DNA of 64,000 nt from an uncultured beta proteobacterium. Its GTDB lineage: Bacteria > Pseudomonadota > Gammaproteobacteria > Burkholderiales > Burkholderiaceae_C. The stretch is from NCBI GenBank assembly GCA_903873485.1, contig CAIQOO010000074.1, positions 20,453-84,452 of the forward strand, read 5' to 3'. The translations under genes and the position numbers were made by a program. The notes below the pieces were generated by a model. That model saw only the letters and a list, made by a program, of their open reading frames with translations, had not been told where the DNA came from and did no database searches. Positions 18,995 through 61,487 of the stretch are shown here, one piece after another (the first letter of the stretch is position 1; every line of letters begins with the position of its first letter).

Positions 18995-20593
18995 ATGATT
19001 TTCAGTTCACCGCAATTCATCCTGTTGTTTTTGCCGGCGGCGTTCTTTGGTTACTTTTACCTCAACCGGCAGCGCCTGGTGGTGGCCGGCAAGGTCTGGC
19101 TGGTGGCTTTGAGCCTGCTGTTTTACGCGGTCTGGAATGTGGCCTACCTGCCGCTGCTGCTGGCATCGATTGTGTTCAATTTTGTGCTTGGCTCGCGCCT
19201 AGCCGCCAGCCGTGCCGATACCGGCAGGCAGCGATGGTGGCTGCTGGTAGCCGGCATCAGCGCCAATCTGCTGCTGCTGGGCTATTTCAAATATGCCGGG
19301 TTCCTTGTTGGCAACCTCAACGGATTGTTTCAACTGCAACTCGGTTTGCCGCAAATTCTGTTGCCGCTGGGCATCAGTTTCTTCACCTTCACCCAGGTAG
19401 CGTTTCTGGTTGACAGTTATCGCGGGGCGGCCAAAGAATATGAATTGCTCAACTACAGCTTGTTTGTAACTTTTTTCCCGCACCTGATTGCCGGCCCGAT
19501 CCTGCACCACAGCGAGATGATGCCGCAGTTCAACTCACGCTGGACGCTGGACGCTGGCGGTGCGCTGGCGCGGCCACGCCTGCCAGCGCGCGAACCCTGG
19601 TGGGATGCCAGCCGGCTCTACAACATCGACTTTCTGATGGCGCAGGTCAGCCGGGTGCTCTACCACGCCGGCATTTCAACCGATCCGGCCCAGGTCATCA
19701 TCGGCAAAAACCACTGGCTCTACCTTGGTGATGCGCATGGCGAGGGGATTTCGGTCAAGCGGCGCCAGCCGGGCATTGACGATGAGGCGATCAACAGCCA
19801 GATTGCTGCGGCCGCGCTGGCCTGGGAATACTGGTTCAAGGGCCAAGGTGTGCGCCTGTACCGGGTGCTGCTGGCACCCGACAAAAGCTCGGTTTATCCC
19901 GAATTCCTGCCCGACTGGGCACAGCCCCGGCAGATCACGGCGATTGACGGGCTGCTCAAGGGCGCGCACCACAGCATCTATGTCGATAGCCGGGCGGCCC
20001 TGGCCGCTGCCAAAACCGAGTTTGCCGAAGCGCTGTATCCGCCCAACAACACGCACTGGAATGCGCTGGGCGCCTGGGCCGGATTTCGCCAGCTCGGCCA
20101 GTCCATGCGGTTGGCCGAACCGGGCCTGCGCTGGCCCGCCGACAGCCAACTGCGCGTGGTGAAGGCCGAGATGATCACTGGCGGCGATCTGGCCAGCTTT
20201 CTGCGCATGGGCGATGTGCTGCAAGACCGGGAGCTGACCACCGAAGTCAGCACCGGCTTGGCCATCGAGACCCGGCAAACCGATTTTGAGTCCGGCCAGT
20301 TGCTGCTGTCGGGCGGCAATCCGCGCCTTGGCGCACCGCAGACACCGCTACTGGTGACATCCCCGCAGGCGCTGAACCAGCGCCGGGTGCTGTGGTTGCG
20401 CGATTCTTTTGGCGTTGCCATGTCGCCCTACATGGCAGCCACCTTCACCGAGACGCTGCAATTGCACTACAGCGCCGCCGACCCCGCTTTGGTGGCCCGC
20501 CTGGTAGCACAGTTCAAGCCCGACTATGTGCTGGTCAGCGTGGTGGAGCGCGATGCCCGGTCCGCCTGGTTCACCCGGCGGCCACCGGGCTAA
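18995..20593 (+). pseudogene. in-frame fusion of the N-terminal third of an AlgI-type MBOAT O-acyltransferase to an N-truncated AlgJ/AlgX-like SGNH protein
   Basis: LPLGISFFTF and FFPHLIAGPI MBOAT motifs stop at about aa 185, with no C-terminal MBOAT His motif; then IGKNHWLYLG, LAPDK, THWN, RDSF AlgJ-like motifs. Confidence 0.75.
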
Positions 20594-21648
20594 AGCCCCG
20601 GCAACTCTGGCGCGGACTGGGGCGGCATGACGCCGAGATGGCGGTATGCCGCCAGCGTGGCAATGCGGCCACGCGGGGTGCGTTGCAAGTAACCTTGCTG
20701 AATCAGATAGGGTTCGATCACGTCTTCGATGGTTTCGCGCTCTTCGCCAATGCTCGCTGCAATGTTGTCAAGCCCGACCGGGCCGCCATCAAAGCGGTGG
20801 ATCACCGCCTCCAGCAACTTGCGGTCCATCAAGTCAAAACCTTGCGGATCGACATCGAGCATGGCCAGCGCGCGGTTGGCAATGTCAAGCGAAATTTCGC
20901 CTTTGCCCTTGACGTCGGCGTAATCACGCACCCGGCGCAGCAGCCGGTTGGCAATGCGCGGCGTGCCACGCGAGCGCCGGGCAATCTCGAAGCCGCCTGC
21001 TTCATCGGTCGGCACATTGAGCAGGCCGGCGCTGCGCTTGACAATCAGCGCCAGTTCTTGCGGGGTGTAAAACTCCAGCCGCGCCACAATGCCAAAACGG
21101 TCGCGCAGCGGATTGGTCAGCATGCCGGCCCGGGTGGTGGCGCCTACCAGGGTAAAGGGTTGCAAATCGAGCTTGATCGAGCGTGCCGCCGGTCCTTCGC
21201 CGATCATGATGTCGATCTTGTAGTCCTCCAGCGCCGGGTACAAGATTTCTTCCACCACCGGGCTTAGGCGGTGAATTTCATCGATGAACAGCACATCGTT
21301 CTTTTCCAGATTGGTCAACAAGGCGGCCAGGTCCTTGGGCTTTTCCAGCACCGGGCCGCTGGTCTGGCGCAGATTGACGCCGAGTTCGTGCGCAATGATG
21401 TGGCTCAGGGTCGTCTTGCCCAAGCCGGGCGGGCCAAACAGCAGCACATGGTCGAGTGCTTCGCCGCGCATTTTGGCGGCAGCAATAAATATCTGCAGTT
21501 GCTCGCGCGCCTTGGCTTGGCCCACATAGTCATCCATCAGCTTGGGCCGCAGGGCACGCTCAACCGCTTCTTCGTTGGGCGAGGCGGGGGCATTGGAGAC
21601 CACGCGTTTGGGTGGTGCGCTGGCGAAATCGTCGGTTTGAATGCTCAC
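20590..21648 (-). CDS. ruvB: Holliday junction branch migration ATPase RuvB
   Basis: [40 protein letters not shown]; GTG start. Confidence 0.98.
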
Positions 21649-21769
21649 GGCAGGCTCGGTTGCAGGCTAAGGCTGGCACTATAGCGCCCAGCGTTCAAGC
21701 CGGTTCCAGGTTCTGCCGATAACATGACATAAAAGACTCTTTGCGGGGCGCCGACGCCCCGGTCATGCC

Positions 21770-26465: not shown

Positions 26466-26540
26466 TTTGACGTGAAACACCCCCGTTCGTGGTGAGCTTG
26501 TCGAACCACATGCCCTTCGACTGCGCTCAGGGCGAACGGT
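26466..26540. repeat. REP-like imperfect hairpin doublet with parS-like tail
   Basis: tttgacgtgaaaca-ccccc-gttcgtggtgagcttgtcgaacc...ccttcgactgcgctcagggcgaacgg; 26466-26508 is the inverted near-copy of 59351-59392. Confidence 0.8.
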
Positions 26541-26574
26541 TTCATCATTCGGAGAGGGCAAGAGTCCATGCAAG

Positions 26575-27942
26575 TCAGCCGCGCACTTCGCCTTGGCCCA
26601 GCACCACATACTTGAGCGAGGTCAGCCCCTCGATGCCGACCGGGCCACGGGCGTGAAACTTGTCGGTGCTGATGCCGATTTCGGCTCCCAGCCCATACTC
26701 GAAGCCATCGGCAAAACGGGTGCTGGTGTTGACCATCACGCTGGCCGAATCGACCTCGCGCAAAAACTGCTGCGCATGCAGGTGGTCGCGCGTCAGGATG
26801 GCATCGGTGTGGTGGCTGCCATAGTGGTTGATGTGGTCAATCGCCTCATCGACTCCGGCCACGATCCGGATGCTGATGATCGGAGCGAGGTACTCGGCAA
26901 ACCAGTCGGACGGCTGCGCCGGAACCAGTTTCAAGGCCGCTGAACCGGCGTTGCCAAGGCCTTGATTTGCTACAGAATAGCTAGCTGTCAGCGCACTGCC
27001 AGCATAGGCTAGAGCACGATTTTGTTCAAAAGTCTGGAGCAGCAGCAGGGCTTCGGCATCACAGCGCATTTCAACCCCTTTGGCGGCGTAAATGGCGGCA
27101 ATCGGGGGCAAAAACACGGCCGCCACGCCGCGCGCCACCAGCAGGCTTTCGGTTGCGTTGCACGGGCTGTATTTGCTGGTTTTGGCGTTGTCGGCCACCC
27201 TTACTGCCATCTCCAGATCACACGGCTCATCGACATAGGTGTGGCAGTTGCCGTCGAGGTGCTTGATCACCGGCACCTTGGCACCGGCACTGATGCGCTC
27301 AATCAACCCTTTGCCGCCGCGCGGAATGATCAGATCAACATACTGCGGCATGGCGATGAGTTGGTCCACCACGGCGCGGTCGGTGGTTTGCACCAGTTGC
27401 ACCGCGTTTTCTGGCAGGCCGCTTAAGTGCAGCGCCTGTTGCACCAGTCTGGCCAGTGCCCGGTTGGACTCGATCGCCTCGGAGCCGCCGCGCAAAATGC
27501 AGGCGTTGCCACTTTTGATCGACAGGCTGGCGGCTTCGATCGTCACATTGGGCCGACTCTCGAACACCATGCCAAACACGCCAATCGGCACCCGCATCTG
27601 CCCGACCCGGATGCCGCTGGGCTGCTGCCTGATGCCGATCACCTCGCCAATCACATCCGGCATGGCGGCCAGTTGCTCGCAACCCTGGGCGCAGGTTTCG
27701 ATCACGCCGGGCGTCAGCTTGAGCCGATCTACCAGCGGTGCCGCTAGGCCAGCCGACACGGCGCGTTCGATGTCTTTGGCATTGTCAAGCTGCAGTGCGC
27801 CGACGTTGCCCCGCAGCAACTCGGCGAGTTGTCGAAGTGCCTTGTTTTTAAGGGCTGGCGGCGCTTTGGCCATCAGGGCCGAAGCCTGCTTGGCCTGCAA
27901 ACCCAGGGTCTGGGTGTAGTCGGTGATGTCGGATAGGTTCAT
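26575..27942 (-). CDS. proA: gamma-glutamyl phosphate reductase
   Basis: [47 protein letters not shown]; carries an internal insertion. Confidence 0.97.
26968..27023 (-). repeat. 56-bp dispersed element, copy 6 (in frame inside proA)
   Basis: reverse complement aaaatcgtgctctagcctatgctggcagtgcgctgacagctagctattctgtagca, translated as [19 protein letters not shown]. Confidence 0.8.
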
Positions 27943-57631: not shown

Positions 57632-58258
57632 TTGGCATCAATAGAGTGGGCATCAATTTTGGTCAACTTCTGGAGTGGCCTGGCCACCGGCCTGGCGCTG
57701 ATTGTGGCCATTGGCTCGCAAAACGCCTTTGTGCTGCGGCAGGGCATCTTGCGCGAACATGTGCTGGCGCTGGTGCTGTTTTGTGCGTTGTCGGATGCAC
57801 TGCTGATTGCCGCCGGCATTGCTGGTGCCGGTGTGCTGATTCGGGACAACCCGGCGCTGATGATGCTGACGCGCTATGGCGGTGCGCTGTTTTTGGCCAG
57901 TTATGCCGCCATGGCGGCCCGGCGCGCCTGGGCTGGCAGCCAGATGCAGATACGCCCCGCCACTGGCACCCCGCTGGCGGCGGCGCTGGCCGCGTGTTTT
58001 GGCTTTACTTTTTTGAACCCGCATGTCTATCTTGACACCGTGGTGCTGCTCGGCGCGATTGCCAACCAGCAGCCAGACCCCGGGCGCTGGCTGTTTGGCG
58101 CCGGCGCCTGTACCGGCAGTCTGCTATGGTTTTCGGCGCTGGGTTTTGGCGCCCGTTTTTTGGCGCCGCTGTTTCAGGCCAGCCAGGCCTGGCGCGTGCT
58201 TGACAGCCTGATTGCGCTGACCATGCTGACCATGGCGGTGGCGCTGCTGCGCACCTAA
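57632..58258 (+). CDS. LysE/ArgO family amino acid exporter
   Basis: LIVAIGSQNAFVLRQG, FLNPHVYLDT; start uncertain. Confidence 0.9.
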   Translation: MASIEWASILVNFWSGLATGLALIVAIGSQNAFVLRQGILREHVLALVLFCALSDALLIAAGIAGAGVLIRDNPALMMLTRYGGALFLASYAAMAARRAWAGSQMQIRPATGTPLAAALAACFGFTFLNPHVYLDTVVLLGAIANQQPDPGRWLFGAGACTGSLLWFSALGFGARFLAPLFQASQAWRVLDSLIALTMLTMAVALLRT

Positions 58259-58773
58259 ACCTCTGTACGCCCTTCGAAAAGACGGCTAATGGCCTGTCCG
58301 GGCAACCACAGTGTCAGCGGTGTATCAGGAAATTCTTCAAAGTTCATCTGGCTATAAAAATGATGAGCGCCTGCATTCTTGGCATCGACGATGACACCTG
58401 CCGAGCCTATTTCTTCTGAAAGACGATGGCAGCGGTACAGCGCATCCAGCAGCAGCAACTTGCCGATTCCCTTGCCCTGCTGGCTTTGGTCAACGGCTAA
58501 GCGGGCTAACCGCGCAACCGGTACCGGGTAATGTGGAAACCGCTTTTGCTGCTGCTGCGGCAACTGTTCCCGCCGGATGGCCGCCATGGCCAGGCTGTAG
58601 TAGCCCAGAATGGCGGCTCCCCTGGCTGCAACGTAGGTGCGGCTGATGTTCGACTCGCCGTGCTGACGGGCAAGTTGGCGCAAATAGTTGTCCAGTGCAG
58701 CCTCGCCACAGGCAAAGTTGCGGCGGTCATGATGTTTCGCCAGCGTCTCAATCTGACCATCAAAGGCCATCAT
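58255..58773 (-). CDS. GNAT acetyltransferase toxin (TacT/AtaT-like)
   Basis: HDRRNFACGEAALDNYL, YYSL, LARLAVD, QGKGIG, VDAKN. Confidence 0.9.
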   Translation of the reverse strand: MMAFDGQIETLAKHHDRRNFACGEAALDNYLRQLARQHGESNISRTYVAARGAAILGYYSLAMAAIRREQLPQQQQKRFPHYPVPVARLARLAVDQSQQGKGIGKLLLLDALYRCHRLSEEIGSAGVIVDAKNAGAHHFYSQMNFEEFPDTPLTLWLPGQAISRLFEGRTEV

Positions 58774-58780
58774 GGCATCA

Positions 58781-59077
58781 TCAATTGGCGGTGGTGCGTT
58801 GGGCACGCCAGGCCAAATAGTCCAGCGCAGCAGCTTCAAGTTTTGGTCTGGGCTTGTCGGCGTTGTCCAGCGCGGTAAAAAATGCAGCCCAATCCCGAGT
58901 TGAAAACGTCAGTGACTCGCTCTCAGCCAGAATCTGTTTGGCTCGATCCTGTGCACAAGCGATGAGAAAAGCGCTCAAAGAAACGCCAGCCGTTGTTGCC
59001 GCGCGCACGATCAGTTCCTTGATCTCAGGCGAGGTGCGCAGATCAATGCGCTCAAACGGTTGGGTCAGGGTAGCCAT
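58781..59077 (-). CDS. DUF1778 RHH antitoxin (TacA/AtaR-like)
   Basis: ERIDLRTSPEIKELIVRAA...SLSAFLI; directly upstream of the GNAT toxin. Confidence 0.9.
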   Translation of the reverse strand: MATLTQPFERIDLRTSPEIKELIVRAATTAGVSLSAFLIACAQDRAKQILAESESLTFSTRDWAAFFTALDNADKPRPKLEAAALDYLAWRAQRTTAN

Positions 59078-59194
59078 GCTTAGCTCCAGATTTGTTACGG
59101 AAAAAATACGGAATGATTGTAGGTGATCGGAGAATTTGTGGCATGCCCCGGATGTTGTGAAATCATGCGGGTGCCCACACGAATACAGGAGCCA

Positions 59195-59327
59195 GGCTCC
59201 AATGGCACTGACTTAAGCGCAATTGCTTGCCAAATTCCCCGTTCGCCCTGAGCTTGTCGAAGGGTCAAGAAGGCTTCGACAAGCTCAGCCCGAACAAAAA
59301 CCCCTTTGAGTCAGTGCCATTGGGGCC
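59195..59327. repeat. nested inverted repeats: 21-bp outer arms enclosing a REP-like hairpin
   Basis: Outer ggctccaatggcactgactta / tgagtcagtgccattggggcc (19/21); inner gttcgccctgagcttgtcgaag / cttcgacaagctcagcccgaac (20/22). Confidence 0.85.
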
Positions 59328-59350
59328 AAAGTCAAATTAAATCAAGGCTT

Positions 59351-59378
59351 TGGTTCGACAAGCTCACCATGAACGGGG
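59351..59378 (+). repeat. half REP-like element heading the tandem array
   Basis: tggttcgacaagctcaccatgaacgggg; inverted near-copy of 26481-26508. Confidence 0.75.
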
Positions 59379-59520
59379 TGTTTCACGTCAAAAACGGCGG
59401 TGTTTCACGTCAAAAACGGCGGTGTTTCACGTCAAAAACGGCGGTGTTTCACGTCAAAAACGGCGGTGTTTCACGTCAAAAACGGCGGTGTTTCACGTCA
59501 AAAACGGCGGTGTTTCACGT
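59377..59520 (+). repeat. perfect 22-bp tandem repeat, six full units plus 12 bp
   Basis: Unit GGTGTTTCACGTCAAAAACGGC starting at 59377, 59399, 59421, 59443, 59465, 59487, partial at 59509; no spacers. Confidence 0.97.
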
Positions 59521-59583
59521 TAATCTGGTGGCTGCGAAACCAGCCGACAATGTCACCGGTAAATGCTGCATAGCGACATTCGG

Positions 59584-59640
59584 TGACTATGATATATATA
59601 GCTTGCTACGCTTTATGGATAAGGGCTACAGCCATATTTT
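59584..59640 (-). repeat. 56-bp dispersed element, copy 14
   Basis: reverse complement aaaatatggctgtagcccttatccataaagcgtagcaagctatatatatcatagtca. Confidence 0.8.
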
Positions 59641-59810
59641 GCTTAAAAAATGTGGTTTCAGGCAGGCGGCCCGCAGGCCATTCGCCGCAGCATTTTGACA
59701 GCCGTTTTTTGGCTCCACTATTTCAAGCCGCCAGGCTTGGCGCGTGCTTGTCAGCTTGGTTGCGCTGAGCATGCGGACAATGGCGGCAGCGCTGCTGCGC
59801 AGTCAGCCAG

Positions 59811-61487
59811 ATGCCGACACATTTCCCGGAGACCCTGATGCCATCGCCCGACAATGTTTGTGCCAACCCGATCGTTCATTTGTTTCACGCCAGCCTGGTC
59901 TGGCCCCTGCAGCTTGAGCCGATGCCGCTGGCGGCGGCCAGCAAACGCCACTGGGAGGCGATTGAGAACTGCGGCGACACGCACCCCTGGCATCTGATCG
60001 ACGATGAGTTTACCGAAGACCCGCGCCAATTTCGTGAACGGCATTACCGGGAATTTGTGTCTTTTCTGCCCTATGTGCAGCGGTTTCTGTATGGCGAAGG
60101 CCGCACGGGCCAGGCTGGTGCCGACCCGCTGGCGGGCCGCTCGCCGATGCATGTGTTTCGGCGCAAGGACATCAGCGGCCTGCGCCTGACCCTGCGCCCT
60201 GGGCAAGTGCCGGTGGAACTGCACATTGTGCACATCGACCTTTACCTGTTTGACGACCTGGACCTGGTTCAGTTGAACCTGGAGGTGTGTGCCAGCCAAC
60301 TGCCGCTCGATACCGTGCGCGATATTCTGTTCAGATTTGGCCGGGCCTATCCGTCGGGCTGGGAAGCAGGTGGTGCCGGTCTGCACAACGTCCATCTGGC
60401 CGAGTGGCTTGGCAGCGATGGCCAGGTGCTGGCCCGCTCCGACACCGAGCATCGGCAGAAATACCTCGGTTTTGTCTGCCAGCATCGCAGCCCCTGCATC
60501 TCGGAACACTGGGCCAGCCTGCTGCGCCCGCTGGTGCTGGCCCATTCGGACGAGCCCGGCGACTTGCGTTATCGGCTGATTGAATACCACCGCATGCCGG
60601 TGATGGCCTTTCTGGCGCTGGAGCCGTCGGTGGCACTCAACGCCCACGACTGGCTGCGCATCGGAATGGCCAGCCTGTTGCACCCCGACGAGGCGGTTCC
60701 TGCCAATGACCCGACGGTGATCGAATTTGGCCAGCGCTATTGCCAGGACCAGTTTCGCACCGGCTTGCGCGCCGGCACCAACAGCCGCTTCATCTGTACC
60801 GGCAATTCCCTGACGGTGGTCGGCGACGCCAGCCAGCCATTTTTTTCAGACCCCGAGCGCGGCATGCTGGCGCAGTTCAGACACCAGTATTTTTTGATCT
60901 TTTTGATCGCGCATCTGCACCGCGCCGCGTTGCTGGTGTTTTCGGATGTGCTGGTGGGCGCAGTCAATGCCCTCAATATCCGCGACGACGAATCGGTGCG
61001 GCTGTTCAAGCGCCGGATCCGGGCCAATTTCGAGACCTTTTTGCGCTTCACGCACCGCTACTGGTTTCATGAGCTGTCGGAGCGACCGCACATGCAGGCA
61101 ACTTTTCGGATGTGCTCGGAGCACCTGCGCAACGATGGCCTGTATGACGAGGTGCGCGACGAAATCCGCGAAATGAGCCATTACCTTGACAGCGATTCAC
61201 AACGCCGCCAGTCCAACACCGTGGTGCGCCTGACCGTGCTGACCATTTTGGGCCTGATTGCCACCGTCACCACCGGCTATTTCGGCATGAACATCATCGC
61301 CTTTGGCGATGGTTCGGTGCTGGAGCGCGCGCTGCACGGTCTGCTGGCCGCGCTGGTGTTTGTCGCGCTGGTGATGTTTGCCGTGTCGCGCTCGAAACGC
61401 CTGTCGGATTTTCTGGAAGCCTTGTCCGATGAGCGGCTCAGCTTTGCCGGCAAATGGCGGACGTTCTGGCGGGTGCTGGGTGGCTAG
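59811..61487 (+). CDS. CorA-like (2-TM, GMN motif) protein with enlarged N-terminal soluble region
   Basis: C-terminal long helix, then TM1 ending GYFGMN and TM2; 558 aa. Confidence 0.7.
   Translation: MPTHFPETLMPSPDNVCANPIVHLFHASLVWPLQLEPMPLAAASKRHWEAIENCGDTHPWHLIDDEFTEDPRQFRERHYREFVSFLPYVQRFLYGEGRTGQAGADPLAGRSPMHVFRRKDISGLRLTLRPGQVPVELHIVHIDLYLFDDLDLVQLNLEVCASQLPLDTVRDILFRFGRAYPSGWEAGGAGLHNVHLAEWLGSDGQVLARSDTEHRQKYLGFVCQHRSPCISEHWASLLRPLVLAHSDEPGDLRYRLIEYHRMPVMAFLALEPSVALNAHDWLRIGMASLLHPDEAVPANDPTVIEFGQRYCQDQFRTGLRAGTNSRFICTGNSLTVVGDASQPFFSDPERGMLAQFRHQYFLIFLIAHLHRAALLVFSDVLVGAVNALNIRDDESVRLFKRRIRANFETFLRFTHRYWFHELSERPHMQATFRMCSEHLRNDGLYDEVRDEIREMSHYLDSDSQRRQSNTVVRLTVLTILGLIATVTTGYFGMNIIAFGDGSVLERALHGLLAALVFVALVMFAVSRSKRLSDFLEALSDERLSFAGKWRTFWRVLGG

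Follow-up and report, generated by a model that had tools for sequence, protein, structure and literature searches.

A parS-like 22-bp tandem array in a betaproteobacterial draft genome is probably a young minisatellite grown from the tail of a dispersed palindromic element

The 22-bp tandem array described here was best explained, with a probability of roughly 80%, as a young minisatellite (VNTR) with no selected function, produced when replication stalled by a hairpin slipped at the foot of a dispersed repeat. The repeat unit derives from the tail of a REP/MITE-like element, arrays of the same kind recur at other copies of that element, and the true parS sites of the genome lie elsewhere. 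The resemblance of the units to parS comes from the conserved end of that repeat, and the array is not a parS site.

The window (the whole stretch of 64,000 nucleotides that was analysed) corresponded to positions 20453-84452 of contig C74 in a draft genome of 243 contigs with a total length of 4.70 Mb and a GC content of 58.9%. The array sits inside a 730-bp intergenic region. The features of this region, of its flanks and of the related element copy in the window were as follows.

26466-26578, minus strand: full class-1 sister copy in which the shared tail variant GTGTTTCACGTCAAA is not expanded (CACGTCAAA)
58255-58839, minus strand: GNAT acetyltransferase toxin-like gene (Pfam PF13508/PF00583), left flank
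58781-59077, minus strand: TacA-like antitoxin (Pfam PF08681, 5.4e-23), left flank
58255-59077, minus strand: the toxin-antitoxin pair as a whole, making up the left flank, with a promoter-like site at 59144-59116 (promoter scan)
59195-59327, no strand assigned: class-2 nested palindromic element with ends CCAATGGCACTGACTTAAG and a REP hairpin (59241-59295) inside
59351-59391, plus strand: right half of a class-1 REP/MITE-like element, consisting of stem arm GGTTCGACAAGCTCACCATGAACGG, a 1-nt spacer and tail GTGTTTCACGTCAAA; origin of the array
59372-59520, plus strand: 22-bp tandem array of 6.8 copies (Tandem Repeats Finder, repeat search and sequence reading)
59580-59655, plus strand: unrelated dispersed repeat of ~60 nt with at least 89 genome copies, separating the array from the downstream gene
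59681-59801, plus strand: relic copy of the 3' end of a LysE-family gene, 83% identical to 58132-58253
59811-61487, plus strand: right flank, a gene conserved throughout the genus whose 558-aa product has a C-terminus weakly like CorA

Tandem Repeats Finder called the array with a period of 22, 99% matches and a score of 291, which exceeded that of every other tandem array of the window by a wide margin. At 59377-59508, direct reading and a repeat search resolved it into six identical units of GGTGTTTCACGTCAAAAACGGC; the partial unit after them, GGTGTTTCACGTTAAT, closes with GTTAAT, the usual terminus of the element. The perfect 22-bp array of the preliminary description was thus confirmed, and the recent tandem expansion proposed there was supported by the six identical units, which point to a recent origin. 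Perfect arrays of 190-198 bp were assembled inside contigs elsewhere in the same genome, which suggests that an array of 149 bp was resolvable; the exact copy number, as assembled, is to be taken as provisional. Exact-pattern scans for sister alleles with the unit junction in public genome and metagenome contigs found none (records of the genome itself were possibly hidden from these scans), and a scan of public metagenome contigs with the right flank junction gave no match.

An ORF of 130 aa (59306-59698) traverses the array. It was rejected as a gene and considered a by-product, since a 22-bp period shifts the reading frame from unit to unit until all three are used, and the plus strand of the unit is free of stop codons. 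Folded as a single strand, the array gave a nearly unpaired centroid and a weak, ill-defined fold (z = -2.6), and for that reason a role as structured RNA or structured DNA was dropped. The search for known RNA families in 58500-60500 returned sub-threshold chance matches only. The class-2 element, which lies 45 bp upstream of the array, had a predicted fold of -48.1 kcal/mol as single-strand DNA (z = -6.1).

BLAST of the array intergenic region against its own genome showed that the region is a mosaic of repeats. The class-2 element has more than 40 genome copies at ~90% identity and stands at this locus in place of the left half of the class-1 element, while the class-1 right half gave ~30 matches at 85-96%. 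The LysE-family gene ends at 58258, and the copy of its 3' end at 59681-59801 delimits the inserted block on the right. With one copy of this 3' end on either side, the repeats, the array and the toxin-antitoxin pair form a single bracketed block, and the duplication looks as though an inserted cassette had brought the gene end with it or restored it. The 558-aa gene starts 290 bp downstream of the array. Other Pfam assignments among the neighbours were LysE, CinA and DNA polymerase III delta (holA). Other species of the genus had no conserved counterpart of the array intergenic region. In them the 558-aa gene is preceded by a different neighbour, both in the complete genome G020 (lysA-like) and in genome G021, so that an orthologous intergenic comparison of the array locus was impossible. 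As a separate observation, the ~60-nt repeat has the layout TTGCTAT-N9-ATAGCT-N5-GCGCTT-N5-ATAAGGGCTAGAGCC-N-ATTTT, is multicopy in other species of the genus too and had no Rfam match.

The parS-like half-site was identified as the conserved 14-nt right terminus GTGTTTCACGTTAAC of the class-1 element. This REP/MITE-like element of ~130 nt has the layout CTAACTTGCATGG...CCGTTCGCCCTGAGCcTGTCGAAGGGC-loop-GGTTCGACAAGCTCACCACGAACGG-nn-GTGTTTCACGTTAAC, with CTAACTTGCATGG as its left end. Genome-wide, GTGTTTCACGT is nearly always found immediately 3' of the hairpin arm GGTTCGACAAGCTCACCACGAACGG. When the right-half cores of the genome were anchored on the stem arm, 36 of them had GTGTTTCACGTTAA at 1-4 nt past the stem, and conservation of the tail was 30-36 out of 36 across 14 positions before falling abruptly to 19, 15 and 11. 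The complete class-1 element including the tail was also found in a Rhodoferax sp. MAG, which was the sole outside match to the element and makes it probable that the genome studied here is itself from Rhodoferax; a literature search with the hairpin sequence found no paper. Within the window, the 15-mer GTGTTTCACGTCAAA had 9 matches at ≤2 mismatches compared to 0.15 expected from shuffles. The 9 include an exact minus-strand copy that stands singly at 26466-26480, the single-copy relative that had been claimed at 26466, and the sister element to which it belongs is 95% identical to 59351-59392 over 43 nt.

The composition of the unit connects the array to this tail. Each 22-bp unit consists of the 15-nt tail variant GTGTTTCACGTCAAA, AACGG from the end of the hairpin stem and the 2-nt spacer CG, and the succession of AACGG, CG and tail is exactly the stem-end, spacer and tail order of other element copies. 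The junction of stem foot and tail is therefore rebuilt in every unit. The onset of the array was located 1 nt past the stem, so the unit both derives from and adjoins a dispersed repeat. Growth from the tail of a REP-like element, as the preliminary description had it, was in this way borne out and extended, with the array starting at the tail and 36 genome copies sharing that tail.

The same process was found at other copies of the element, and the studied array belongs to a series of at least 15 such expansions in this genome. A genome-wide set of 83 arrays (Tandem Repeats Finder; periods of 10-50, ≥2.5 copies, ≥85% matches) contained 15 within 30 bp of a hairpin core compared to ~0.3 expected, such zones being 0.34% of the genome. 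The binomial P of this enrichment was 9e-22, or 1e-7 when a tenfold larger target space was used to allow for intergenic bias. The stem end ACGG or CCGT was present in 11 of the 15 core-adjacent consensus units by the author's own reading. Four of the related loci are built from the tail itself.

C175:9844-9939: tail-derived sister array, 19 bp × 5.1, unit ACGGTTGTATTTCACGCAA
C154:5454-5515: tail-derived sister array, 20 bp × 3.1
near C164:5260: tail-derived sister array of three units (direct reading)
C83:71781-71843: tail-derived duplication, 21 bp (direct reading)

Together with the studied array, the tail-built sister arrays are different stages of expansion (2, 3, 5 and ~7 copies). A pattern of three spaced CGAACGG motifs gave 17 matches in this genome, and among 40 others of the genus a single genome had any, a contrast that is partly technical because many of the 40 are fragmented MAGs. 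In addition, near-perfect arrays with units of 15-20 bp and 6-13 copies were noted at C83:44788-44985, C42:45431-45620, C148:21249-21380 and C154:5566-5683; all four share this hairpin core, start at its foot and are stronger cases than the studied array. A second array-forming repeat family was also observed, in which a GGGACAGAGC...GCTCTGTCCC hairpin forms the core of tandem units of 60-82 bp, at C235:52147-52405, C80:5467-5779, C93:13549-13777 and C216:34922-35107.

The periods of the core-adjacent arrays were 11, 15, 15, 16, 18, 19, 20, 20, 20, 21, 21, 22, 31, 39 and 42 bp. Multiples of 10.5 were not favoured and there was no helical-phase preference. At 10.5 bp per turn, the 22-bp period of the studied array is roughly two helical turns, as had been stated, but it rotates successive sites by 34 degrees and amounts to ~206 degrees across the array, so that the accompanying statement that all sites lie on one face of the DNA did not hold. 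The sister periods of 19 and 20 bp and the overall core-adjacent range of 11-42 bp argue against selection for helical phasing.

For the growth of the array, we infer slippage at a stalled fork rather than a transposase-driven process. In the proposed course of events, a polymerase copying the tail would stall on entry into the stable hairpin. The nascent end would then slip back to the ACGG/tail homology and the tail would be copied again, giving a 22-bp duplication with ~17 bp of direct repeat, which slipped-strand mispairing could afterwards enlarge to ~7 copies. A stall at hairpin entry followed by upstream re-pairing was proposed because the first bases of the stem are present in the units without exception. 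The parS-like half-site would be a passive passenger of such an expansion.

A transposase-driven origin, in which a REP-associated tyrosine transposase (RAYT) nicks at the foot of the hairpin and repeated nicking and rejoining or re-initiation leaves tandem copies as transposase footprints, appears rather improbable. Y1 transposases act at the junction of stem foot and flank of hairpin substrates, and this is the junction that the units span. A RAYT-like Y1-transposase-like protein of 234 aa is encoded in this genome at C11:2493-3194, directly downstream of a class-2 element, and arrays are far commoner here than in other species of the genus. Nunvar et al. also held that slippage alone was unlikely to explain BIME dynamics (PMC2817692). 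However, the protein scored 74.5 bits against NF047646, under the cut-off of 80, and the element that flanks its gene is of class 2 and not the tail-bearing class 1. Moreover, the period and the unit boundaries vary between arrays, which is unlike the product of a fixed cleavage site and fits microhomology-guided slippage better than a transposase. The excess of stem-foot arrays in this genome compared to other species of the genus could nonetheless reflect a lineage-specific active process, for example one that works through the C11 RAYT-like transposase. Separately, in the region C11:2331-3300 the RAYT-like gene lies upstream of a gltB-like gene, and it is a candidate for mobilising the repeats of class 2.

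Comparison with parS showed that TGTTTCACGTCAAAAA, contained in each of the six units, matches parS TGTTTCACGTGAAACA at 14 of 16 positions. The first arm is perfect and both mismatches fall in the second arm, which reads GTCAAAAA instead of GTGAAACA. The 14/16 match with one perfect half-site that the preliminary description had given was hence correct. On it rested the proposal of a functional centromere-like array, in which degenerate parS units load ParB-CTP clamps and the copy number tunes the loading. The proposal can also draw on the GTTTCAC heptamer, of which seven occur in 150 bp at the array and at most two in any other 200-bp window, making the array the densest half-parS heptamer cluster of the genome.

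The remaining evidence made such a centromere very unlikely. Three of four features of parS were assessed and the array had none of them. First, a parS site is a 16-bp palindrome with both arms matching TGTTNCAC, and in the array unit the palindrome is lost. The ParB clamp closes when a dimer of ParB occupies a full parS. Second, the array is not close to the origin or to parAB. The genuine parS cluster was found on contig C47, where two perfect and two one-mismatch parS palindromes lie within 2 kb (19724-21719) beside a ParB_N-domain gene (parB, C47:18389-18709). Apart from this cluster and the array, no locus with ≤2 parS mismatches was found in the genome, where ~0.57 such loci are expected by chance. 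The preliminary description had suggested that the position of the array be checked relative to parAB. The array and parB are on different contigs, and in G020, with a chromosome of 4.94 Mb, parB (at 54 kb) is 1.30 Mb from the orthologue of the array-flanking 558-aa gene (at 1.351 Mb). If synteny is conserved, roughly a quarter of the chromosome would therefore separate the array from the partition locus. Third, the array is not conserved among related genomes, since 300 other genomes of the family yielded no comparable array. A triple-GTTTCACG pattern with a spacing of 8-18 bp occurred in 1 of the 300 and was unrelated there.

The motif is, furthermore, the terminus of a mobile-looking repeat with 36 tail-bearing copies, and the sister arrays with periods of 19 and 20 bp carry degenerate motifs such as GTATTTCACGCAA. 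The copy-number-tunable ParB-loading array of the preliminary description was consequently not supported, and since the look-alike is explained by the end of a repeat element, the array is not to be annotated as a centromere. Two side observations concern these searches. The one family match, at G107:C16:28620-28669 in another genus of the family, is a 21-bp × 3 array of CGCTTCACGCTGGCGTGAAAC just past a gene end that has GTTTCACG in common with the studied array and is otherwise unrelated. A second ParB_N-domain protein (80 bits) was found at C133:5786-6076, inside an open frame of 743 aa that lies apart from the parS cluster.

Binding of ParB without loading was considered separately. Pseudomonas aeruginosa ParB binds GTTTCAC and GTTCCAC genome-wide, independently of spreading and dimerisation (PMC10419367), and the chromosome-1 ParB of Burkholderia cenocepacia keeps 49% of its binding score on half-parS (PMC5450999). 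The ParB of the present genome evidently uses canonical parS. The density of half-parS heptamers at the array together with this published half-parS binding makes a weak, non-loading binding of ParB to the half-sites reasonably possible, by analogy and as a side effect of the element terminus. That the array should be understood as an incidental ParB sink is nevertheless unlikely. Half-parS binding depends on the ParB and was almost absent for some ParBs of the same study (PMC5450999), while mutation of 25 top half-sites in P. aeruginosa caused moderate expression changes with no dominant local effect (PMC10419367). In addition, the genome contains 542 GTTTCAC heptamers overall, and the array is young and lineage-specific and showed no sign of selection. 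A combined scenario was judged improbable; in it, the hairpin or the RAYT-like enzyme would drive an unusually active, foot-anchored micro-amplification that seeds hypervariable arrays, and the 22-bp array would titrate ParB from the origin in a copy-number-dependent manner.

An iteron-type or other regulatory array, for example a plasmid-like origin whose iterons measure 22 bp or an operator for the TacAT-like pair or the downstream gene, was regarded as extremely unlikely. Iteron origins have a direct-repeat layout that seven 22-bp repeats resemble, the toxin-antitoxin pair adjoins the array, and an AT-rich stretch with a DnaA-box-like TTATCCATA is present ~100 bp to its right. That stretch, however, is part of the dispersed repeat with at least 89 copies. 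Neither an adjacent replication-initiator gene (the neighbours are TacA/GNAT, the CorA-like membrane protein, the LysE-family gene and holA) nor a plasmid or phage context was found, and a similarity search against plasmid and phage records gave no match. As for an operator, the array is ~300 bp from the promoter-like site of the toxin-antitoxin pair with two repeat elements in between. Like arrays also occur at many other element copies with other periods.

Among known systems, the array shares with theta-plasmid iterons (e.g. 22-bp direct repeats) the direct orientation, the period of ~22 bp and the ~7 copies, but differs from them in having no initiator gene, plasmid context or plasmid similarity and in having paralogous arrays with other periods. 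With parS (TGTTNCACGTGAAACA) and half-parS it has in common 14 of 16 bases, one perfect arm and the GTTTCAC heptamer bound by P. aeruginosa ParB (PMC10419367); unlike parS, it is non-palindromic, distant from parAB, unconserved and repeat-derived, and a canonical parS cluster exists elsewhere in the genome. The likeness to REP clusters, as in Escherichia coli BIME-2 and the REP/REPIN clusters of Pseudomonas fluorescens SBW25, is a tandem amplification tied to a dispersed extragenic palindrome, and tandem higher-order REP/REPIN clusters have already been documented (PMC3116915, PMC2817692). Both those clusters and the arrays described here are intergenic, lineage-specific and present at many loci per genome. 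REP/REPIN clusters, however, repeat whole REPs or REPINs in units of ~70-180 bp, whereas the units here are 11-42 bp of stem foot and tail and the hairpin stays single. With bacterial minisatellites (VNTRs) the array shares head-to-tail identical units within 10-100 bp, an intergenic location, a partial last unit and near-perfect identity. VNTRs are defined by copy-number polymorphism whereas this array is known from one assembly, and it has a more specific origin than a generic VNTR, namely a defined element terminus.

Overall, the array is an ordinary young repeat-derived minisatellite, most likely without a selected function, with a modest side value in the genome-wide stem-foot series. Its practical effects are a presumably hypervariable locus, an extra spacer of 130 bp between the TacAT-like cassette and the downstream gene, and seven incidental ParB half-sites. 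The value of the case is mainly cautionary, as it shows a parS look-alike produced by a conserved repeat terminus. The series of stem-foot expansions could serve as a natural system for hairpin-stimulated slippage, the arrays are possible strain-typing markers, and the studied array offers a convenient natural test of a betaproteobacterial ParB on clustered half-parS sites. Finally, a CRISPR-like array with a 37-nt repeat ATTTAAATACCTGCCCTGATTTCAAAGGGATTAAGAC and a period of ~71 bp was observed at C98:16310-18875.
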